NCBI GenBank assembly: GCA_000092065.1
Contig: CP000590.1
Origin: Ostreococcus lucimarinus
Taxonomy: Eukaryota
DNA: 64,000 nucleotides
Strand: one strand, 5' to 3'
In this document: positions 15,490-54,193 of the stretch, piece by piece
Layout of the letters: every line of letters starts with the position of its first letter
Position numbering within the stretch: the stretch's first letter is position 1
The notes under the pieces: model-generated
Database searches by the model: none
What the model was told of the DNA's origin: nothing
Seen by the model: the letters and a program-made list of their open reading frames with translations, nothing else
Translations under genes and position numbers: made by a program

Positions 15490-16974
15490 TTAAATCGTCT
15501 CCAATGCGGCGATACCCTCAAGATGTTTGTAGTTCTTCTTCAGGATGTCGCGCGAATCGGAGATTCTAAAATCGTATCCGTGTTTCTGGGCCCATTCCTG
15601 CATGATGGGACGAAGCTTGTGAAGCTTGTAACGCGGCATGGTGGGGAATAAGTGGTGAATGAGCTGCGTGTCCATACCACCCCACAACCAACGCTCGAGT
15701 GGATTCTTCACGTCCGCTTCGCGAGTGCTTCTAAACTGAATATCGACGAAGGAACCGTCTTCATACATGATTTCCTCGCTCTGGTGCGTAGCGGTGACGA
15801 GAGAGCCTACCAAAAACCCACCGATGAGCATGGAGCCGATGGCGACACCCAAAGGAAGCGTGCCGAACAACCACGCGTAGTGGCCGACGAGCAAAGCGAG
15901 CTCAGTCTTATCCTTGCGCGCCCACGCACTCGCGACGCTGTGTCGGCGCCAGAGCACGTACGTCATCGCGTAGAGCGGATAGCCGTAGATGTGCTGGTAC
16001 TTGCGCAACCAGCTATCCGGGCGCCCACTGGTCTCCGGCGGCGACAAGTAATACAGAGGCTCGAGTTTGATGTCGCCGTCCTTACCGTCGACGTTCGTGA
16101 ACGAGTGGTGCATGTTGTGCTTGTGCGACCACCATTCGGCGGAAAACCCATTCGTCAACGCGCCAAAGCAGCGCATCATCGAGCACCACTTCCCGCGGCC
16201 GTGAACGTAGTCGTGCGCGAGCCATCCGGCTTGTTGCATCCCTATCCCGATCGAGATCGCGGCTAAGATCGGGTGCGTCGCCGCGATGGCTTGTCCGACG
16301 ACGTAGCATCCCAAAACTTGCGCCAACACCGAGAGTTCGGAGAGCGCGTTGCGTTTAAACCAGCCCTCCGCCTCCAACTTCCCTCGCAACTCCCCGAACT
16401 CGGCGTTCGCCGTCGTCAGCCTTTGCGTTTCGTACTCTTCCGTATCATACGGTGCATCGCACTTCGGCAACGCGCGCAAGCGTTTCAACGCCTCGTCGCT
16501 CCCGTTCGGCCCGTACGAGTGCAGCGCGTAAAACACATCCGTCGCGTCTTGTCCGTTCAACAACCGCACGAACCCCGCCCCACCGGGATGCGCCAGCGCC
16601 CACCCCGTCGCATCGTACCACTGTCCATCGACCTTCAGCTTCACTTCCTCCGTCCGTCGCCGGCGCCCGCTCTGCTTCTCGTTCGCTTCCGCCGCCTGTT
16701 CCAGCACCGCCGCGCTCGCGCCGAACGGGCTCAGGAACCCCCACGGCTTCTTCGCCTTCCCATCGTCGCCCGCCGCCGTCGCCGTCGCCGTCGCGTCGTC
16801 CGCGCTCTCGTGTCCCATCGCGTCCGAGATCGCGTCGATCCGCGTCGTCGTCGTCGTCGTCCTCGCGCGCGGTCGCCGTCGAATCGTCGCCGACGTCACG
16901 GCGACATCTTGTCGCGCGCGCGCGCGTCTGCGCGTCGTGAGCGCGCGCGCGTCGCACGTCGCGACGGCGGGCAT
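15490..16974 (-). CDS. Cytochrome b5-fused front-end fatty-acid/sphingolipid desaturase
   Basis: HPGG heme motif and His boxes HDYVH, WWSHKHNMHH and QLIHHLFP (the Q-x-x-HH box is typical of front-end desaturases). Start is either ATG 16974 or an internal M (MGHESADD). Confidence 0.85.
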   Translation of the reverse strand: MPAVATCDARALTTRRRARARQDVAVTSATIRRRPRARTTTTTTRIDAISDAMGHESADDATATATAAGDDGKAKKPWGFLSPFGASAAVLEQAAEANEKQSGRRRRTEEVKLKVDGQWYDATGWALAHPGGAGFVRLLNGQDATDVFYALHSYGPNGSDEALKRLRALPKCDAPYDTEEYETQRLTTANAEFGELRGKLEAEGWFKRNALSELSVLAQVLGCYVVGQAIAATHPILAAISIGIGMQQAGWLAHDYVHGRGKWCSMMRCFGALTNGFSAEWWSHKHNMHHSFTNVDGKDGDIKLEPLYYLSPPETSGRPDSWLRKYQHIYGYPLYAMTYVLWRRHSVASAWARKDKTELALLVGHYAWLFGTLPLGVAIGSMLIGGFLVGSLVTATHQSEEIMYEDGSFVDIQFRSTREADVKNPLERWLWGGMDTQLIHHLFPTMPRYKLHKLRPIMQEWAQKHGYDFRISDSRDILKKNYKHLEGIAALETI

Positions 16975-17310
16975 GCTTTCCGCGTCGCGTCGCGCGTCGC
17001 GTCGTCCGTCGCTCGGCCGCGCGCGCGCGTGTGCGGCGCGCGCGCGCGCGCCGTATCCTCCGACGCGCGAAGATAAGACGTCGATTCGTATGCGTTTAAA
17101 CATCATTAAATGCGAAAGATCGCGCCGACGTCGATTGAATTCGCAGACGATAAATACTCGATTCCAAACCCTGGATGTAACACGGAACAGACACACGACT
17201 CGACGGCGCGACGGCGCGACGGCGCAGTGCGCGCCGCGGCGCGGCGAACGACGCGCGCGCGCGGCCGAGCGCGCGTCGCGCCGCGATCGTCGACGCCGCG
17301 ATCGCCGACG

Positions 17311-17778
17311 ATGATTCGATTCGCGCTGTTATTCAGCAAACAAGCGAAGATTCGCCTGAGCAAGTACTACGTCCTGACGAACCAAAAGGAGCGGAAGAGG
17401 ATCGAGCGCGACGTCACGTCGCGAATCATACCGCGCGCGAACAAGCTGTGCAACGTCGTCGAGTACCGGGACGTGAAGCTGGTGTACAGGAAGTACGCGA
17501 GCCTGTACTTTTGTCTGGCGGTGGACCGAGGCGCGAACGAGCTCGCGACGCTGGAGATGATTCAACACTACGTCGAGATCTTGGACAAGTACTTCGGGAA
17601 CGTGTGCGAATTGGATTTAGTGTTCAACTTTCACAAGGCGCACTACGTGTTGGACGAGGTGTTCATCGCGGGGCATCTGCAGGAGACGTCGAAGAAGTTG
17701 ATCGCGCGGTTGGTGGGCGAGCACGACGCGCTCGTGGAACGCGTCAAATTGGGCGGCCCCGCGGCCGAGGACGCGTGA
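17311..17778 (+). CDS. Adaptor-protein complex sigma (small) subunit
   Basis: MIRFALLFSKQAKIRLSKYY..., LYFCLAVD and ELATLEMIQHYVEILDKYFGNVCELDLVFNF. Which AP complex it belongs to is unresolved. Confidence 0.85.
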   Translation: MIRFALLFSKQAKIRLSKYYVLTNQKERKRIERDVTSRIIPRANKLCNVVEYRDVKLVYRKYASLYFCLAVDRGANELATLEMIQHYVEILDKYFGNVCELDLVFNFHKAHYVLDEVFIAGHLQETSKKLIARLVGEHDALVERVKLGGPAAEDA

Positions 17779-18778: not shown

Positions 18779-20113
18779 CTACACAGAGAGCGTACCTTTG
18801 CTCGACGCCACGGAGCCCGCGCGTCGCGGATCAATCGCCGCGCACTGTCGCAAGCACTTACCGAAAGCCTTCGCCGCGGCTGTGGCAACTTCGGCTTCGT
18901 CCGCGCCGCGCGCGTGCTCGACCAAGTGCACCGTCATTTGCCCGTTGAACGTCAAACTCATGAACATGTGCTCGACCATCTCCACGCTGAGGTCGCCCAC
19001 TTTGTCGCTCTCGAGCTCGAGTCCGTACCCCAAGTACGGGCGATTGCTAAGATCCATGACGCACTCCACCGTGGCCTCACCCTCGGTGGACATCGCGCTC
19101 CCCATGCGATTACACCCTTTCTTAGTCCCCAGCGCCTTGTTCAGCGCTTGGCCGACGGCGATGGACACGTCTTCCGCCGTGTGGTGGTCGTCTATCCACA
19201 AGTCTCCCGTGGCGGCGATGTTCAGCGCCACCCCGGCTTCGCGTTGAATCGCGGTGAACAATCCATCGAGGGCGACGATACCGGTGCTGATCTTCGATCC
19301 CTCGACGTCATCGCGACTGGCGTCTAAATCCAGCTTCACGTCGATGGACGTCTCCTTCGTCGAGCGTTGAATCGCGCTTCGCCGCGTCTCCTCGCTCGCG
19401 GCGGCGCCCGCGTACACGTCGATCCCTTCCGCCGCGTCCATCGCCGCGCGAACCCCCCGCGCGAACGCCTTGAACGTCGATTCGACGATATGATGCGCGT
19501 TATCCCCGCGCTCTTTCACCAACCGCACGCTCACCCCCGCTTCCTCCGCTAACGCTCGCCAAAACGTCTCCGTGAGCGCCGTCGGATACGTCCCGATGCT
19601 CGCGCGTCCCGCCGTCCCCGGCTTCCCATACGGCGCCAGCGCGAACGTCTCCAGCCCTCGCTCGCCGTACAGCTCGATCCCACACGTCGCGTACGCCTCG
19701 TCCAACGGCGCCGCGAACCGCGCCTTCGCCCGCTCCCCGGCGCCTCTCCCGTCTCCCAGCGTCTCTCGCAGCGCCGCGCCCAGCGCCGCGCCCGCGCACC
19801 GAAACGCCTCCTCGTCGCTCACCCCTCCCGCGTCGCGCGCCTCCTCGCACGTCACCCCGCGTCGCGTCAGCACGCAGTGCACGCCCAACTGCGCGTGCGC
19901 GGTGAGCTGATCGATCATGTGATCCAGGAACGGCGCGCCCGTCGCGATCGTCCCGCGCGCGCCGTTCGCATCGATCACCGCGACGCCCTGGACGTCCCCG
20001 CACGCGCGCTCCGCGCGTCCGACCGCCCACGGCGACGTCGCGCGCGTTCGCGCGCGTCGTCTCCCGGCGTCGCGGCGTCGCGGCGCGCACGGCGCGAGGC
20101 GCAGCGTCGCCAT
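18779..20113 (-). CDS. hisB: Imidazoleglycerol-phosphate dehydratase with two tandem IGPD domains (444 aa) and a presequence
   Basis: N-copy (aa ~31-226): TGAPFLDHMIDQL, FAAPLDEAY, GDNAHHIVESTFKAFARG. C-copy (aa ~245-444): STKETSIDVKLDLD, GDLWIDDHHTAEDVSIAVGQAL, DLSNRPYL, VASSKGTL. ATG at 20113. Confidence 0.85.
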   Translation of the reverse strand: MATLRLAPCAPRRRDAGRRRARTRATSPWAVGRAERACGDVQGVAVIDANGARGTIATGAPFLDHMIDQLTAHAQLGVHCVLTRRGVTCEEARDAGGVSDEEAFRCAGAALGAALRETLGDGRGAGERAKARFAAPLDEAYATCGIELYGERGLETFALAPYGKPGTAGRASIGTYPTALTETFWRALAEEAGVSVRLVKERGDNAHHIVESTFKAFARGVRAAMDAAEGIDVYAGAAASEETRRSAIQRSTKETSIDVKLDLDASRDDVEGSKISTGIVALDGLFTAIQREAGVALNIAATGDLWIDDHHTAEDVSIAVGQALNKALGTKKGCNRMGSAMSTEGEATVECVMDLSNRPYLGYGLELESDKVGDLSVEMVEHMFMSLTFNGQMTVHLVEHARGADEAEVATAAAKAFGKCLRQCAAIDPRRAGSVASSKGTLSV

Positions 20114-20858: not shown

Positions 20859-22676
20859 TCATTGCGGTCGACTGTCGATTTCTTTGTAGAGCGCGTTGAG
20901 CAGAGCCACTCCATAGCCAGAACCTAAACCGTCTTTAAAGTTACCAGGACCAGCCATGTCGAGGTGAATCCAAGCCGTGTCATCGCGAGCGACCCAGTCT
21001 GGGTGTAAGTGATTGGCGATGAATTGACCGGCGCAGCTCGATTGCGCGTTGGCGCGGTCGGCGACGGAGTTTTTCATGTCGGCGACTTTGGAACTGAACT
21101 CACTCTTGAACATTTCCGGAGCGTAGGGCAGGGCGTGCGCCAGATCTCCGGTGATTCTGCCCAATCGCACGATGGTGTGCTCCATGTCTTCGCTATCGGT
21201 CACAAGTCCGGCGTGTTTACGCCCGGTGGCGATCATTTGCGCTCCGGTGAGCGTGGCCATGTCGACGATGATGCGCGGCTTGCACGCGGCGTTCGCGGGA
21301 TCGGAGCAATACGCGACGCCGTCCGCGAGCACGAGGCGCCCTTCGGCGTCGGTGTTGTTGATTTCCACTGTCTTTCCGCTCTTGCCGACGAGAATGTCAT
21401 CCGGGCGAATCGCGCCCGAGCCAATTGCGTTTTCGGCGATGCACAGCACGAGGTCGAGTGGCGTCTTGAAATTCGATTCGGCGTCCTCGCGAGCGATGGA
21501 CTCAAACGCGCACAGCATACCCGCGGCACCGCCCATGTCCGTCTTCATACCGCACATGCCGTCTTTAGATTTCAGCGAAAGCCCACCGGTGTCGAACGTG
21601 ATACCCTTGCCCACGAACGCGATGGACGGCGCGTCCGGGTCGACGCAACCTTTCGGCGTAAATCGCAAGTGCACGAGCGCGGGATCACGACCGTCGCGAC
21701 TCGAAGCGCTTCCGACGCCCGCCAGACATCCGTAGCCCTCCTCGACGAGTTGCGCGTAACGTTTAATCTCGACAACCTTAACGCTCGCGCCGAGCTCGCC
21801 CGCGACGACCTTCGCCTCGTCCACAAACGCGTCCGGCGACAGCTCGTTTGGCGCCATGTCGACGAGCGCCTGGCATCTGCGCACCGCCTTTGGCAACGAC
21901 CGCGTCTCCGCCCCGTTCCAAATCTCCCCTCCGCACACGACGCCCACGTACACTTCCCCGTCCACAACCGCGTCCGCCGCTCGAAACTTATTCGTATACG
22001 GCGCACTAATCCTCGCCAACGCCGCCAACGCCCCGACGCGGTGCGCCTCCTCGTCCACCGCCGCGAGCACCACCGCTCTTCTCTTCTTCCGATCCCCTAT
22101 CGCCGCTTTCGCCGCCGCCGTCATCGCGTGCGCGGCGATCGGCGAATTATGTCTCGACATCTTCGATTTCTCCGGCATCACGCACACGACGAGCTCCAAC
22201 AGTCCCTCGTCGTCCTCGCTCGCCGTCTCGAGCACCGTGCTCCGCGTCGCGTTCGCGTCGAGGCTCTCGACCAATCGCTCGAACGTCCGCGCTGCGCGCT
22301 CGTTCGTCCCGAACGCGCGCCGCGCGAACGCGCCGTTCTCGAGCAGCGCATCTTTCGCGCCGACGACGACCCATTTCGCGTCGTTCGTGCGCCGCGCGGC
22401 GTCGCAATCGTCGTTCGTTTCGATCGTTTTCAGCGTCGACGCGCCGCGCCATCGGTCGTCGTGATGCGTCGTGGACATGCGCACGCGCGCGGAGGAGGCT
22501 CGACGCGAACGAACGCGGTGTGCGCGCGCGGTGTGCGCGCGGTGAGCGATTCGGGAGGGCGCGAAGGGCGCGCGGGCGCGCATGCGCCGTGGTGTGAGGC
22601 GGCGAGGGCGGCGCGCGCGGCGGCGTCGGCAACCGCCGCGAGCGCCGAGGAGAGCGAGTCGCGTGAGTTGAGTCAT
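20859..22676 (-). CDS. Leucyl aminopeptidase (peptidase M17)
   Basis: VGKGITFDTGGLSLK and NTDAEGRLVLAD signatures. It has an Arg-rich presequence, and internal starts (MSTTHH...) are possible. Confidence 0.9.
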   Translation of the reverse strand: MTQLTRLALLGARGGCRRRRARRPRRLTPRRMRARAPFAPSRIAHRAHTARAHRVRSRRASSARVRMSTTHHDDRWRGASTLKTIETNDDCDAARRTNDAKWVVVGAKDALLENGAFARRAFGTNERAARTFERLVESLDANATRSTVLETASEDDEGLLELVVCVMPEKSKMSRHNSPIAAHAMTAAAKAAIGDRKKRRAVVLAAVDEEAHRVGALAALARISAPYTNKFRAADAVVDGEVYVGVVCGGEIWNGAETRSLPKAVRRCQALVDMAPNELSPDAFVDEAKVVAGELGASVKVVEIKRYAQLVEEGYGCLAGVGSASSRDGRDPALVHLRFTPKGCVDPDAPSIAFVGKGITFDTGGLSLKSKDGMCGMKTDMGGAAGMLCAFESIAREDAESNFKTPLDLVLCIAENAIGSGAIRPDDILVGKSGKTVEINNTDAEGRLVLADGVAYCSDPANAACKPRIIVDMATLTGAQMIATGRKHAGLVTDSEDMEHTIVRLGRITGDLAHALPYAPEMFKSEFSSKVADMKNSVADRANAQSSCAGQFIANHLHPDWVARDDTAWIHLDMAGPGNFKDGLGSGYGVALLNALYKEIDSRPQ

Positions 22677-34562: not shown

Positions 34563-48000
<13,438 letters not shown>

Positions 48001-48055
48001 GTGAGTCATTCACGCCGTTAGTGTCACCGAAGGCTCAAGGTAGAGCGCATGAATG

Positions 48056-48098
<43 letters not shown>

Positions 48099-48100
<2 letters not shown>

Positions 48101-48106
48101 GGGTTT
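48099..48106 (+). promoter_or_regulatory. Telo-box (TAGGGTTT, the reverse complement of AAACCCTA) upstream of island gene 2
   Basis: ccaTTAGGGTTTAGtg lies 140 bp upstream of ATG 48246, in the same sense-strand orientation as in the minus-strand island genes. Confidence 0.5.
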
Positions 48107-48245
48107 AGTGAAAACTGACGGGGACAACCCCACCGCGTCGCTCGCCCGCGTCACACCGCCTCAACCGCGCCGTCACACCATGCCACTCGCGACGTGGCAT
48201 GTGTGTGATCTCTTTGGGTAGTGCGTGATCCCGCGTGTACGTCAA

Positions 48246-48717
48246 ATGGCTGCTATCGTTACGTGGCTCGCATCGAGCGCACTCGCGTCGACTATGACGA
48301 GTGCGGCGAAAGCACTCACGCGGCGATCGTGGAAGCGCGCGGTCCGCTCGATGCTGGATGTGTACTGCGAATCGTATGCCTGGGACGAAGAGAGCGAGCA
48401 AAATGACCTGTCTGTCGTCGTCAAGGACGTCATATTGAAGAAATCAGAGCTGGAGGCGCTGCTCCTCACCTTCGGCTTGCACTTGGGGGAGGGCGGCTGC
48501 ACGTTTGGGAAAATTCGCTTCTGCATCTCTCTCGGTCTGAACATGGACATGGAGCTCTTCACAAAGCCGTGGCGTATTGAAGTGGACCATTTTCGACTGA
48601 ACATAGGCTGTGGTGCACGTGCTGAGTGCGATGTTCGCACAGAGGTGAACTCTCAATTTGATTGCTCGTCGGAAGGGTCTTCAAGACCAACGAAAATGGA
48701 AGAATGGCTTCCCCTTC

Positions 48718-48762
<45 letters not shown>

Positions 48763-49802
48763 TCACTCTTCACTCCATCAACCTTGCCGGGAGTTTGATA
48801 TTCAAGCTTGATACTGTCAAATATACCACAACCAATGAACATTGGTCGCCGATGGCTACCATAACGACTAGCGCTGACTATGCTGGAGGTATCTTACATA
48901 AGTTACTAACGTTTGAGGGCTTCGAAGCATATACAGATCGAGCCGTGTCGCCTTCGGATAGTGCTTCCGTAGACTGCTCTGGGCCTTGGGACCTTCCTTT
49001 TGAGGATGGCACACTTCTTCCTGTGCCTCAACTGACCCGCGTGAAGGTCTTGTTCAACGGATTACAAGGCAACATGAAGATTATTAAGAAGCTCAAAAGT
49101 AGCCTGACGGGACGCGTGGTGACCGATTTCTTTGGGGATGTATACACCTTTCAACTGTGTCTGGTTTCGGGTGGTGTACCAAAAGTGCGTATTCCACACA
49201 TTGCATTGCGCTTGGAATGGTCTGAACACATTGGGACGTACGTTCTCAACATGGAAGAAGCAGTTCAATTCTCGATTAGCCATCAGATCGACGCAGAAAT
49301 CCTAGCAGAAACCAATGCATGGCTAGTCCAAATTTTAGAAGCACATGCGGAGGTTGCGGCGTCCACTGAAACACAGCTTTCTTACGAGCGTGCTCGTCGC
49401 TTTCAGGAGCAAGCTTACGTTGGACGATTACATAAGCGACTCGATGAAGTGAAAGAAACCTTCCGAGAGAAATTCCTCGTTTGGCGCTCTGGGACGAAGA
49501 GTGCGATAGACGAGTTAAATATGGCTTTGTCGGAAGAGCAGCAACGACGTGAAGCGTTGGAAAAGGCCATGAAAGCGCAACAAGAAGTACTATCACAAAT
49601 GTACCAACAGCTGCAAGCACAGCTTGTTGATGCATCCCCGGTTGAACAAGTCAACGCTGTCTCACAAGCTATGCGCGCTATGAGTATGTCACTTGATCCG
49701 AAGTCAAACTCAACGCTGCCTCAGCGGGTGCCCTTTGAGGGAGGCTACCAGTTCGGAGATGTTTCGCGGAAAGCTCTTCGATGGTTCTCAAACATTGTCT
49801 AA
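48246..49802 (+). CDS. Island gene 2: 518-aa protein, N-terminus weakly chorein-N-like, C-terminal half coiled coil
   Basis: Uninterrupted ORF. The DLSVVVKDVILKKSELEAL...FGKIRFCISLG...KPWRIEVDHFRLNI pattern recalls VPS13/ATG2-type chorein-N, which is speculative. The 3' end and extra exons are unresolved. Confidence 0.55.
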
Positions 49803-49896
49803 ACCGCATCTCATGGGCAAGAGAAAGAGACGCTCTACAAATTCTTAGATTGAGTAACATTATCAAGAACGAATTCAAGAATAGTGAGTGGAGCAG

Positions 49897-49941
<45 letters not shown>

Positions 49942-50172
49942 CTCATACCGGTGCTCGTCAAGTCAAACCAGGAGCTGCACGAACGAATCGTTCATCTAGA
50001 GAGGGCACTCGAAATTCAACAGCAACACGACGCTCAAATCGCCGATTTAGAGGCCGCCGTTGCCTCGAGAGATCAGCAGATCGACGAACTCGTGGAGAGC
50101 TCAGTGACATCGTCTCGAGACTGGAGGCGGTGGAAACTTAAATTGTTACACTTTTCATTCGTCATGTCGCTT

Positions 50173-51154
50173 CTATGTGTCAGCCAAATCACCCATTTCT
50201 ATTTCTTTGTCAAGTGTTTCATCGGCAAACACTTGGTACTTGAACGGCTTTCGTGACCAAAACTTGACGTACAAACAGAGCGATACACCGCCAATGACAC
50301 ACGCCGTGAACAGCAAAATGAACACTGTGGCGACAAACTTCCATGGATTATGAGGAGTATCAGGCGCAAACTTTTCACGGAGCTTTTCGCATTGCACGGT
50401 CGCCATACCCACACGGGAATTCTCGAGGTCATACTCGACAAACGTGTTTCTCAGCGTTTGCTGACCCAGTATGATCTGTTCACCATTTGCTAGTGCAGCA
50501 TCGCTCGCCGACATTATCCCTGCACAAAACGCATGCAAGTTGACAGTGTCTGCAAACAAGTAATTCTCGGGACGTAGGACCAGAGTGACGTCCGGATCGT
50601 ACGTGATTGTAAGACTTGGGAACCATCGCGTGAGTGTGTACTGAGTCAGTGACGATTGCCTTTGGTTCTCGTAAAAGCAATGTGTTCCTCTCACAACCAC
50701 ACTTAGGCCGGCACTGCGCGCCGTTTCATTGAGATGTGTCATGAAATCGTGGTGCATTGCGCTCGGTAACACTGTCAGCGTCGTTCCACTGTCGAGAACT
50801 GTGTACACGTTCGATGAGCTAGCGATCGTTTTGTCACCAAGTTTCCAAGACATCGTGCGAACGGCTAAGTCGTCTTCCCCGAGCATGCGAGTCCACGCAA
50901 GCTCCGGGACGCGCCTTCCAAAGTTGTAACGACCCAGTGTAAGCATCGCGGTCGATGTTTCCATACCTTCGCTACAGAATCCGAATACGTGCGCGTCGAT
51001 GACACCCGCCTTTGCCAACTGTGTGTGAAATGCAGTGTTGCCCCGACTGAACCCAGCCATACCATCTTGGCGGAGATTGCTCCCATCGGGGTAATACATG
51101 CCACCGCAGCCGAAAGTGATCTTCGCAGGAGCCAACTCATCACCCAGTGTAAAC

Positions 51155-51199
<45 letters not shown>

Positions 51200-51750
51200 C
51201 CGATTCCAAACAAACATGTGTTTGTGTACGATATGTTTGTATCACACAGAAGGACATTCGGTTGCGCATTGCAGTACGCCGCATCCTCAGTGCTTGTTGT
51301 ACAGTTGAGTTTTCGAAATGTCTTAGACATGTCGTAATCGTAGTATGGATGTTCGTGAATCCCACACACTTCAAGTGGACATCCCTTACACGGGAAGTAA
51401 GTCAGCGGACTCCCGGTGTCCACTTCAAGGTCAAACTTTTGCTTGCCCGCAAGCTCCACCGTCAAGAAGAACTCGTGGCCCGATGAGTACAAACCTATGA
51501 GGTCCGCACCGTACGAGTGGAGCGGGATCGCGTCCGCTTTGGACAACAGACGCCGCCCCGCCCCCGCGGTAGCCCTTGGTTTTCTCTTAACGGCGATCGC
51601 GAACGAACCTTTTCCGGACGCGTGCGCGCCCAAAGCGACGAGTGCTACGTACACGACGAGAACAATCATCGTCTCCCTCCACGCGCGCTGTGTTTGCCGC
51701 TCATTGTTGGGTGCACGGTCGTGCACACGCGCCGAACGGCGGGGACGCAT
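50173..51750 (-). CDS. Island gene 3: A1-family aspartic protease with a signal peptide and a C-terminal transmembrane anchor
   Basis: LEVDTGSPLTYF and VLDSGTTLTVLP catalytic motifs. Signal-like MIVLVVYVALVALGAHASG and a C-terminal helix FVATVFILLFTACVIGGVSLCLYV. Start at ATG 51750 or 51669. Confidence 0.85.
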
Positions 51751-51776
51751 GCGTCGCGGACTGCCGCCGTCTCCGC

Positions 51777-51811
51777 CGGAAAAACGGAGATTGCCAAACC
51801 CTGCAGAAATC
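51777..51811 (-). promoter_or_regulatory. Degenerate third copy of the island module (ccggaaaaacggagattgccaaaccctgcagaaatc)
   Basis: It aligns with cggaaaaccggagacgctaaaccctatcaaaaatc of copy A and lies 27-61 bp upstream of the aspartic protease ATG. Confidence 0.55.
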
Positions 51812-51878
51812 TATAACGGGTCCAAGCCTGCTTGAGAATAATAACCATGATGGCATAGCCGAATACATTTTTACATCT

Positions 51879-54193
<2,315 letters not shown>

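Follow-up and report, generated by a model that had tools for sequence, protein, structure and literature searches.

The window analysed here is a 64,000-nucleotide stretch of contig CP000590.1 of Ostreococcus lucimarinus (GenBank assembly GCA_000092065.1), with positions counted from its first letter. On the minus strand it carries a gene for a tandem imidazoleglycerol-phosphate dehydratase (IGPD), in which two IGPD domains, denoted N-type and C-type, follow one another in a single 444-residue open reading frame free of interruptions (18782-20113). Database protein P0001 has the same sequence (100% identity). The residues required for catalysis are divided between the two domains in such a way that the two halves would have to share one active site.

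The Pfam model PF00475 (IGPD; gathering cut-off 27 bits) matches the whole protein at 235 bits, in two stretches. When the halves were scanned alone, the scores were 89.2 bits (E 3.5e-25) for residues 36-232 and 152.2 bits (E 1.3e-44) for residues 240-444, so that by profile score each half separately is a member of the IGPD superfamily (PF00475 / InterPro IPR000807); the two IGPD units that a previous reading, made from the sequence alone (the sequence-only reading), had recognized in this frame are thereby confirmed. In a phmmer comparison with Arabidopsis IGPD2 (At IGPD2) the C half scores 155 bits, with 42% identity, and the N half 78 bits. Two of the NCBIfam HisB models are exceeded (NF002111, 253.5 against a cut-off of 231; NF002114, 215 against 189), and 11 others remain under their cut-offs, including the best-scoring one, NF002108 (272 against 328). 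The Pfam scan detected no HAD histidinol-phosphatase domain in the protein, and its match to the bifunctional HisB model NF003937 (249 against a cut-off of 443) is confined to the IGPD part.

To describe the active-site residues, 17 catalytic and ligand positions, in At IGPD2 numbering taken from a PDB alignment, were located in both halves of 87 full-length homologues (phmmer, MAFFT). H47, Q51, H55, H169, H170, E173 and K177 are present in the N-type domain of all 87, and D108 in that of 86. The C-type domain has E21, H73, H74, E77, R99, R121, H145, S199 and K201, each in 87 of 87. The loss of motifs, which the sequence-only reading had described as largely reciprocal, is in fact complete: the two retained sets are disjoint and jointly account for all 17 positions. 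The eight Mn ligands (H47, H73, H74, E77, H145, H169, H170 and E173) are split four and four, in a complementary manner, in every homologue. The lost positions vary and never hold a metal ligand; position 145 of the N-type domain is S, T, P or V, and position 173 of the C-type domain is M, L or T.

In the O. lucimarinus protein, the N-type residues are H65 (At H47), Q69 (Q51), H73 (H55), D138 (D108), H207 and H208 (H169 and H170), E211 (E173) and K215 (K177). Those of the C-type domain are E254 (At E21), H310, H311 and E314 (H73, H74 and E77), R336 (R99), R358 (R121), H382 (H145), and S437 and K439 (S199 and K201). Each domain retains one of the (D/N)xHHxxE motifs, the second (DNAHHIVE) in the N-type domain and the first (DDHHTAE) in the C-type domain. 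All of the motifs and positions named in the sequence-only reading translate as given there, including PLDEA, STEGEA, TETFW and VEHMF. The features of the gene are collected in Table 1.

Table 1. Features of the tandem IGPD gene. Coordinates are positions in the window; residue numbers refer to the 444-residue protein unless marked At.
Feature	Coordinates	Strand	Evidence and remarks
Tandem IGPD coding sequence, complete	18779..20113	-	ATG at 20113, 444 codons, stop at 18779-18781
Arg/Ala-rich N-terminal extension, residues 1-35	20009..20113	-	Residues 1-20 with pLDDT <55; not conserved in close relatives
N-type IGPD domain, residues 36-229	19427..20008	-	Pfam 89.2 bits, residue mapping, AF2 secondary structure
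Inter-domain linker, residues 230-244, with Met225-proximal sequence	19382..19426	-	Low conservation
C-type IGPD domain, residues 245-444	18782..19381	-	Pfam 152.2 bits, At IGPD2 155 bits, Foldseek, residue mapping
FLDHM, His65 = At His47, Mn1 ligand from chain A	19916..19930	-	Invariant 87/87
DNAHHIVES, His207/His208/Glu211 = At H169/H170/E173	19478..19504	-	Invariant 87/87
SDEEAFRC, degenerate remnant of the first (D/N)xHHxxE box of the N-type domain	19796..19819	-	Positions 73, 74 and 77 variable across the family
DDHHTAED, Mn ligands His310/His311/Glu314	19169..19192	-	Invariant 87/87
VEHMF, His382 = At His145, Mn2 ligand from chain A′	18962..18976	-	Translation and residue mapping
SSKGT C-loop, Ser437/Lys439 = At S199/K201	18791..18805	-	Translation and residue mapping
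ALDGL (C-type domain)	19259..19273	-	Translation
ADEAEVA (C-type domain)	18884..18904	-	Translation

The Arg/Ala-rich extension at the N-terminus is presumed to be a chloroplast transit peptide. Across the family the linker between the domains is 12-48 residues long (median 17) and poorly conserved.

A division of this kind could be read as one fully competent half joined to a catalytically dead one with a scaffolding or regulatory role, in the manner of the 100-kDa hexokinases, and the C half is indeed far nearer to canonical IGPD (152 against 89 bits with Pfam; 155 against 78 bits with At IGPD2). However, in none of the 87 homologues does either half have a complete ligand set. The C half is devoid of H47, H169, H170 and E173, as well as of Q51 and H55, while the N half has lost H73, H74 and E77 with the DDHHxxE box, and also H145, E21, R99, R121 and the C-loop. 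A live half paired with a dead one is thus hardly credible.

Canonical IGPD is a Mn-dependent homo-24-mer of 432 symmetry with 24 active sites. In the Acanthamoeba enzyme, the numbering of which is that of At minus 7, Mn1 is bound by H74 of chain A′ together with H47, H169 and E173 of chain A, and Mn2 by H73, E77 and H145 of chain A′ together with H170 of chain A; the phosphate pocket is built from K177 and H55 of chain A and R99, R121, S199 and K201 of chain C, and the Mn2 water is held by D108 of chain A (PMC6029752). The Medicago structures (PMC10978614) and those of Bisson 2015 (PMC4509728) concur on the metal ligands and on a third chain that gives R99 and R121. Comparison with the residue map indicates that the set retained in the N-type domain is exactly that of chain A, and the set retained in the C-type domain exactly that of chains A′ and C, E21 excepted. 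This also settles a point on which the sequence-only reading had found the complementarity imperfect, namely that the His of the EHFF block survives in the C copy alone: His145 comes from chain A′, as do His73, His74 and Glu77 (PMC6029752, PMC10978614), and its place in the C-type domain is the expected one. The canonical enzyme loses its activity upon mutation of E21 to Q and also upon deletion of the C-loop (PMC4509728), and both are invariant in the C-type domain because both are essential in canonical IGPD.

As a separate observation on position 145, Glu replaces His there in many canonical single-domain IGPDs (e.g. P0307, P0316 and P0323, including that of the red alga Compsopogon), so that across the superfamily this Mn2 ligand is either H or E.

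The reference model of the O. lucimarinus CCE9901 protein (RefSeq XP_001420174.1, UniProt A4S3Y5; 220 aa) is 100% identical to residues 225-444, i.e. it starts at the internal Met225 (nt 19439-19441) and covers the C-type half only. Taken at face value, it would mean that the real protein begins at Met225 and that the N half is either what is left of a pseudogene in decay or a gene of its own further upstream; in the 90% cluster to which the protein belongs, many other gene calls are partial as well. Against this, the reading frame is uninterrupted, and full-length models and complete transcripts are found in many taxa. Positions that are at least 95% conserved number 53 in the C-type domain and 36 in the N-type domain, so both are constrained, and the 36, which are shared by green algae, diatoms and dinoflagellates, include all eight chain-A residues. 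Moreover, four of the eight Mn ligands are missing from the C half, along with Q51 and H55, and hence it would be no IGPD by itself. A start at Met225 is therefore very improbable, and the RefSeq annotation is almost certainly truncated; the reference model of this species represents a half that would be unable to act alone.

In diatoms, dinoflagellates and Pyramimonas, complete MMETSP/EukProt transcripts run through both halves, and these open reading frames place the two on one mRNA, which counts against the possibility, raised in the sequence-only reading, that transcripts would show them to be separate. An assembly artefact, also considered there, was ruled out: the halves have no DNA 12-mer in common, and BLASTP finds no in-register alignment between them. 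Divergence to this degree points to an ancient duplication.

A model of the protein was built with AlphaFold2 (AF2) from the 87-sequence alignment, with a mean predicted local distance difference test score (pLDDT) of 91.2 and a predicted template modelling score (pTM) of 0.91. The secondary-structure order β-β-α-β-α is seen twice, and both halves show the order of strands and helices of IGPD. The duplicated β-β-β-α-β-α fold of this family, in which a four-helix bundle lies between two sheets, is recognized in both, judged for the N half by secondary structure and Pfam only. Foldseek aligned one half, the C-type, with At IGPD2 (4MU4) over ~199 columns at a template modelling (TM) score of 0.93 and a root-mean-square deviation of 1.6 Å. 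The high pTM indicates that the N and C domains are predicted to hold a fixed relative orientation. No tandem IGPD structure was found in the PDB by Foldseek and sequence search, which matched single-domain IGPDs only.

Taken together, we consider it likely, at roughly three chances in four, that the protein is a chloroplast-type IGPD in which two fused domains share the labour of one inter-subunit active site as an obligate pseudo-heterodimer. The sequence-only reading had suggested that each half provides one side of an inter-subunit site, with half the number of sites per domain, and the partition in 87 of 87 homologues bears this out at the level of residues. The N-type domain would take the role of chain A, contributing the Mn ligands H47, H169, H170 and E173, the last of these being also the proposed base, and the phosphate-binding and proton-relay residues Q51, H55, K177 and D108. 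The C-type domain would take two roles, contributing H73, H74, E77 and H145 as Mn ligands in place of chain A′, and R99, R121 and the C-loop residues S199 and K201 in place of chain C; it would also carry the acid-base residue E21. At a two-fold-type interface between an N and a C domain, one canonical di-Mn site would be left, while its symmetry mate would be stripped of all ligands. Each half is predicted to be inactive alone, with one site per two domains. By inference, the tandem protein would have IGPD activity, two Mn per polypeptide and the geometry of a 12-mer.

It is conceivable that the protein has instead acquired another activity or another metal site, with histidine synthesis left to a different IGPD gene, and the N-type domain does have family-specific invariant features (Q75, R202 and an LAPYG motif). 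On the other hand, the residues kept jointly by the two domains amount to everything that one canonical site contains, from metal ligands and phosphate pocket to acid-base residues and C-loop, and the source databases name the tandem protein as the IGPD of O. lucimarinus and of Bathycoccus. Such a neofunctionalization is consequently improbable.

The residue map makes a particle with 24 sites impossible. The most likely particle would be the usual 24-domain shell built from 12 polypeptides, its octahedral (432) symmetry lowered to tetrahedral (23). The tetrahedral group is the only index-2 subgroup of 432; its three-fold axes keep the domain type and the four-folds and edge two-folds swap it, which would lead to homotypic N3 and C3 trimers. 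All contacts between trimers in such a shell would be N-C, and the particle would have 12 intact and 12 extinct di-Mn sites, with two Mn per polypeptide. Around each two-fold edge the three chains would form a ‘snub triangle’; one of A and A′ would be related to chain C by a three-fold axis, and the other by a four-fold axis. The linker of 12-48 residues would take over from half of the Mn bridges by which trimers are normally assembled into the 24-mer.

The same split site could also be housed in a different assembly, for example in dimers or hexamers of the polypeptide with the site formed by an intrachain N/C pair. The loss of half of the Mn bridges on which canonical trimer-to-24-mer assembly depends would fit such an arrangement, as would the tight intrachain N/C unit suggested by the pTM of 0.91. 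However, R99, R121 and the C-loop, which canonically come from a third chain, are invariant, and this argues for a site that is still completed by a third domain, supplied by another polypeptide, and for a higher-order assembly that persists; we regard the smaller assemblies as rather unlikely. Two points weigh against the shared site in a tetrahedral shell as described above. The tetrahedral model would depend on chain C being the three-fold mate of A′. In addition, the catalytic glutamate is labelled ‘Glu21A’, i.e. as belonging to chain A, in the legend to Fig. 2 of Bisson 2015 (PMC4509728); this label, the only one found that gives a chain for E21, conflicts with E21 being invariant in the C-type domain only and absent from the N-type domain. 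Either the prime was dropped from the label, or the intact site of the tandem family lacks the canonical E21.

In a first database search, 426 clusters (90% identity) were obtained; among the best 120, each is either a two-domain protein of ~400-540 aa or a piece of one. A search of 1.84 billion representatives with an N-type profile gave 102 clusters (50% identity) at E < 1e-30, well separated from the canonical IGPDs, and in every sufficiently long member of these an N-type domain precedes a C-type one, with the same residue pattern. The tandem form occurs in Mamiellophyceae (Ostreococcus, Bathycoccus), Pyramimonadales (Cymbomonas tetramitiformis, Pyramimonas obovata), diatoms (Thalassiosira oceanica, T. 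antarctica, Mediolabrus, Ditylum, Extubocellulus, Odontella, Nitzschia, Cylindrotheca) and dinoflagellates (Effrenium voratum, Yihiella), so that the survey of Mamiellophyceae and other green algae proposed in the sequence-only reading did recover the same fusion, in Bathycoccus, C. tetramitiformis and P. obovata. The canonical single-domain form was found in land plants, Mesostigma, the chlamydomonadalean Sanguina and the red alga Compsopogon.

The N-type profile found no convincing stand-alone N-type protein among the 1.84 billion representatives. The short matches that might have been stand-alone N-type or C-type genes (P0204, P0217, P0236, P0250 and P0268) look like truncated gene calls, because they terminate either at the linker or in read-through of an intron. 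Matches of 600-1200 aa (P0233, P0241, P0247 and P0238) were considered as fusions with other histidine-pathway enzymes and rejected, as Pfam finds in them IGPD and unrelated domains (Nucleoporin_FG, SPEF2); to judge from these domains, the long stretches N-terminal to the tandem IGPD probably reflect the merging of gene models and not new fusions.

In a neighbour-joining tree the N-type and C-type domains each form a clade with 100/100 bootstrap support, and the two subtrees are congruent, which argues for one ancient duplication and fusion, after which the halves co-evolved as a unit. This pattern indicates a single origin of the tandem IGPD, followed by vertical descent and by transfer of the gene as a fused unit. 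Pyramimonadales are basal and least diverged in both clades. Their proteins (P0300 of C. tetramitiformis, P0345 and P0346 of P. obovata) score 143-146 bits with the N half and 192-197 bits with the C half against At IGPD2, compared with 78 and 155 bits for Ostreococcus, and these versions should be useful in reconstructing the early steps of the N/C split. The N and C clades were recovered as sisters in 0/100 bootstraps of the same tree, and long branches are the likely reason. With regard to the subfunctionalization after internal duplication proposed in the sequence-only reading, a single ancient duplication and fusion fits the tree, and it may have been either internal or a fusion of two paralogues. 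The route would have been complementary degeneration after duplication and fusion, by a neutral ratchet rather than by adaptation; this is the most economical account, as there is no evident selective gain and the number of Mn per active site is unchanged. A broader picture, to which we give even odds, is that of a naturally symmetry-broken enzyme cage: in prasinophytes, diatoms and dinoflagellates, which are major marine phytoplankton, the sole IGPD would be a tetrahedral 12-mer of tandem polypeptides that mimics an octahedral 24-mer, with 12 live and 12 extinct sites, and it would have arisen once and later passed by gene transfer between green-algal lineages and those with secondary plastids.

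The IGPD gene is flanked by genes of the kind usual in a eukaryotic nucleus, with no clustering of the histidine pathway: a cytochrome-b5-fused fatty-acid desaturase (15493-17196, minus strand), a clathrin adaptor small (sigma) chain (17311-17775, plus strand) and an M17 leucyl aminopeptidase (20862-22676, minus strand). Farther along the window, a block at 46001-52000 has a G+C fraction of 0.51-0.53, compared with ~0.62-0.70 elsewhere, and holds an aspartyl-protease open reading frame (50176-51750, minus strand) and others without Pfam matches. Two 525-aa open reading frames at 48-52 kb were considered as an inverted duplicate, which was rejected since their sequences are unrelated.

IGPD, a metalloenzyme known from textbooks as a 24-mer, is a target for herbicides and antimicrobials. 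The literature searched, which included IGPD in combination with algal genera, yielded no account of the enzyme in tandem, double or duplicated form. The enzyme family is known, while its tandem architecture and split site seem not to have been described before; the sequence-only reading had likewise seen no account of the architecture, and we found neither a paper nor a PDB entry for it. The structural and evolutionary accounts consulted all treat IGPD as a homo-oligomer with both HHxxE motifs in each subunit, and the tandem family departs from this in ecologically dominant phytoplankton. Since the partition of the 17 residues mirrors the crystallographic chain assignments, it can be viewed as a natural mapping experiment, which for canonical IGPD predicts that E21 comes from A′ or C and that chain C is the three-fold mate of A′. 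More generally, it would provide a clean case of an interface-site oligomer that was duplicated and fused and then made irreversible by complementary loss. If the symmetry-broken cage is real, nature would offer in it an unusually clear instance of a three-chain site split residue by residue between fused paralogous domains. The architecture also ties prasinophytes to diatoms and dinoflagellates, and so touches on the debate over ‘green genes in chromalveolates’. The pairs of two-fold-related sites that have been used in plants for the design of symmetric inhibitors would be half missing in these algae.

Comparison with canonical monofunctional IGPD (plant HISN5 / At IGPD2, yeast His3 and bacterial HisB; 4MU4, 2F1D, 6EZM and 6FWH) shows the same fold in both tandem halves, and the residues that define the chemistry are matched by the two halves taken jointly. 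The difference is that in the tandem protein each domain has one box and a complementary subset of residues, the domains are fused, and at most 12 sites are possible per 24 domains. An ancient half-domain duplication by gene elongation (Sinha 2004; Del Duca 2020, PMC7284861) was likewise a duplication and fusion within the IGPD family, and it is only this old intradomain α1/α3 repeat that BLASTP detects when the N half is compared with the C half. That event, however, predates LUCA and gave the ~200-aa domain, whereas the tandem event duplicated the whole domain again. In a 2020 survey of 535 IGPDs, HHxxE was stated to occur in both halves of all sequences (PMC7284861), a generalization that the tandem family contradicts. 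Bifunctional HisB is also an IGPD fused to a second domain in one polypeptide of histidine biosynthesis, but its partner is a HAD phosphatase; fusion with HAD is the sole fusion mentioned in a 2024 network analysis of 12,710 IPR000807 sequences.

A second tandem was noticed in Canna indica (CP136895.1, L001 3001-10930), where a 426-aa protein annotated as a tandem of plant-type IGPDs (P0347) adjoins a canonical copy. Its N copy has lost H73, H74, R99, R121, H145 and K201, i.e. 6 of the 9 A′/C residues, and none of the 8 chain-A residues; its C copy has lost only Q51 and H169, and none of the A′/C residues. The direction of loss is that of the algal family, and a post hoc calculation gives odds of ~1 in 700 that the Canna losses would sort in this way at random. 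In contrast to the algal family, P0347 is recent and of the plant type, and it is independent of the algal proteins in the tree. The Canna locus has further degenerate IGPD exons, and P0347 may represent decaying duplicates that were merged by annotation.

Parallels in evolutionary terms are offered by pairs of paralogues that split or share an interface site, such as the deoxyhypusine synthase heterotetramer of trypanosomatids, AdoMetDC and its prozyme, and NAD-IDH1/IDH2 of yeast. In each of these an oligomer with an interface site was duplicated, and complementary degeneration left the copies dependent on each other, although they are encoded by separate genes and have folds unrelated to that of IGPD. 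In the tandem IGPD, by comparison, the copies are fused, and what has been partitioned between them is the three-chain site of a cage-like 24-mer.

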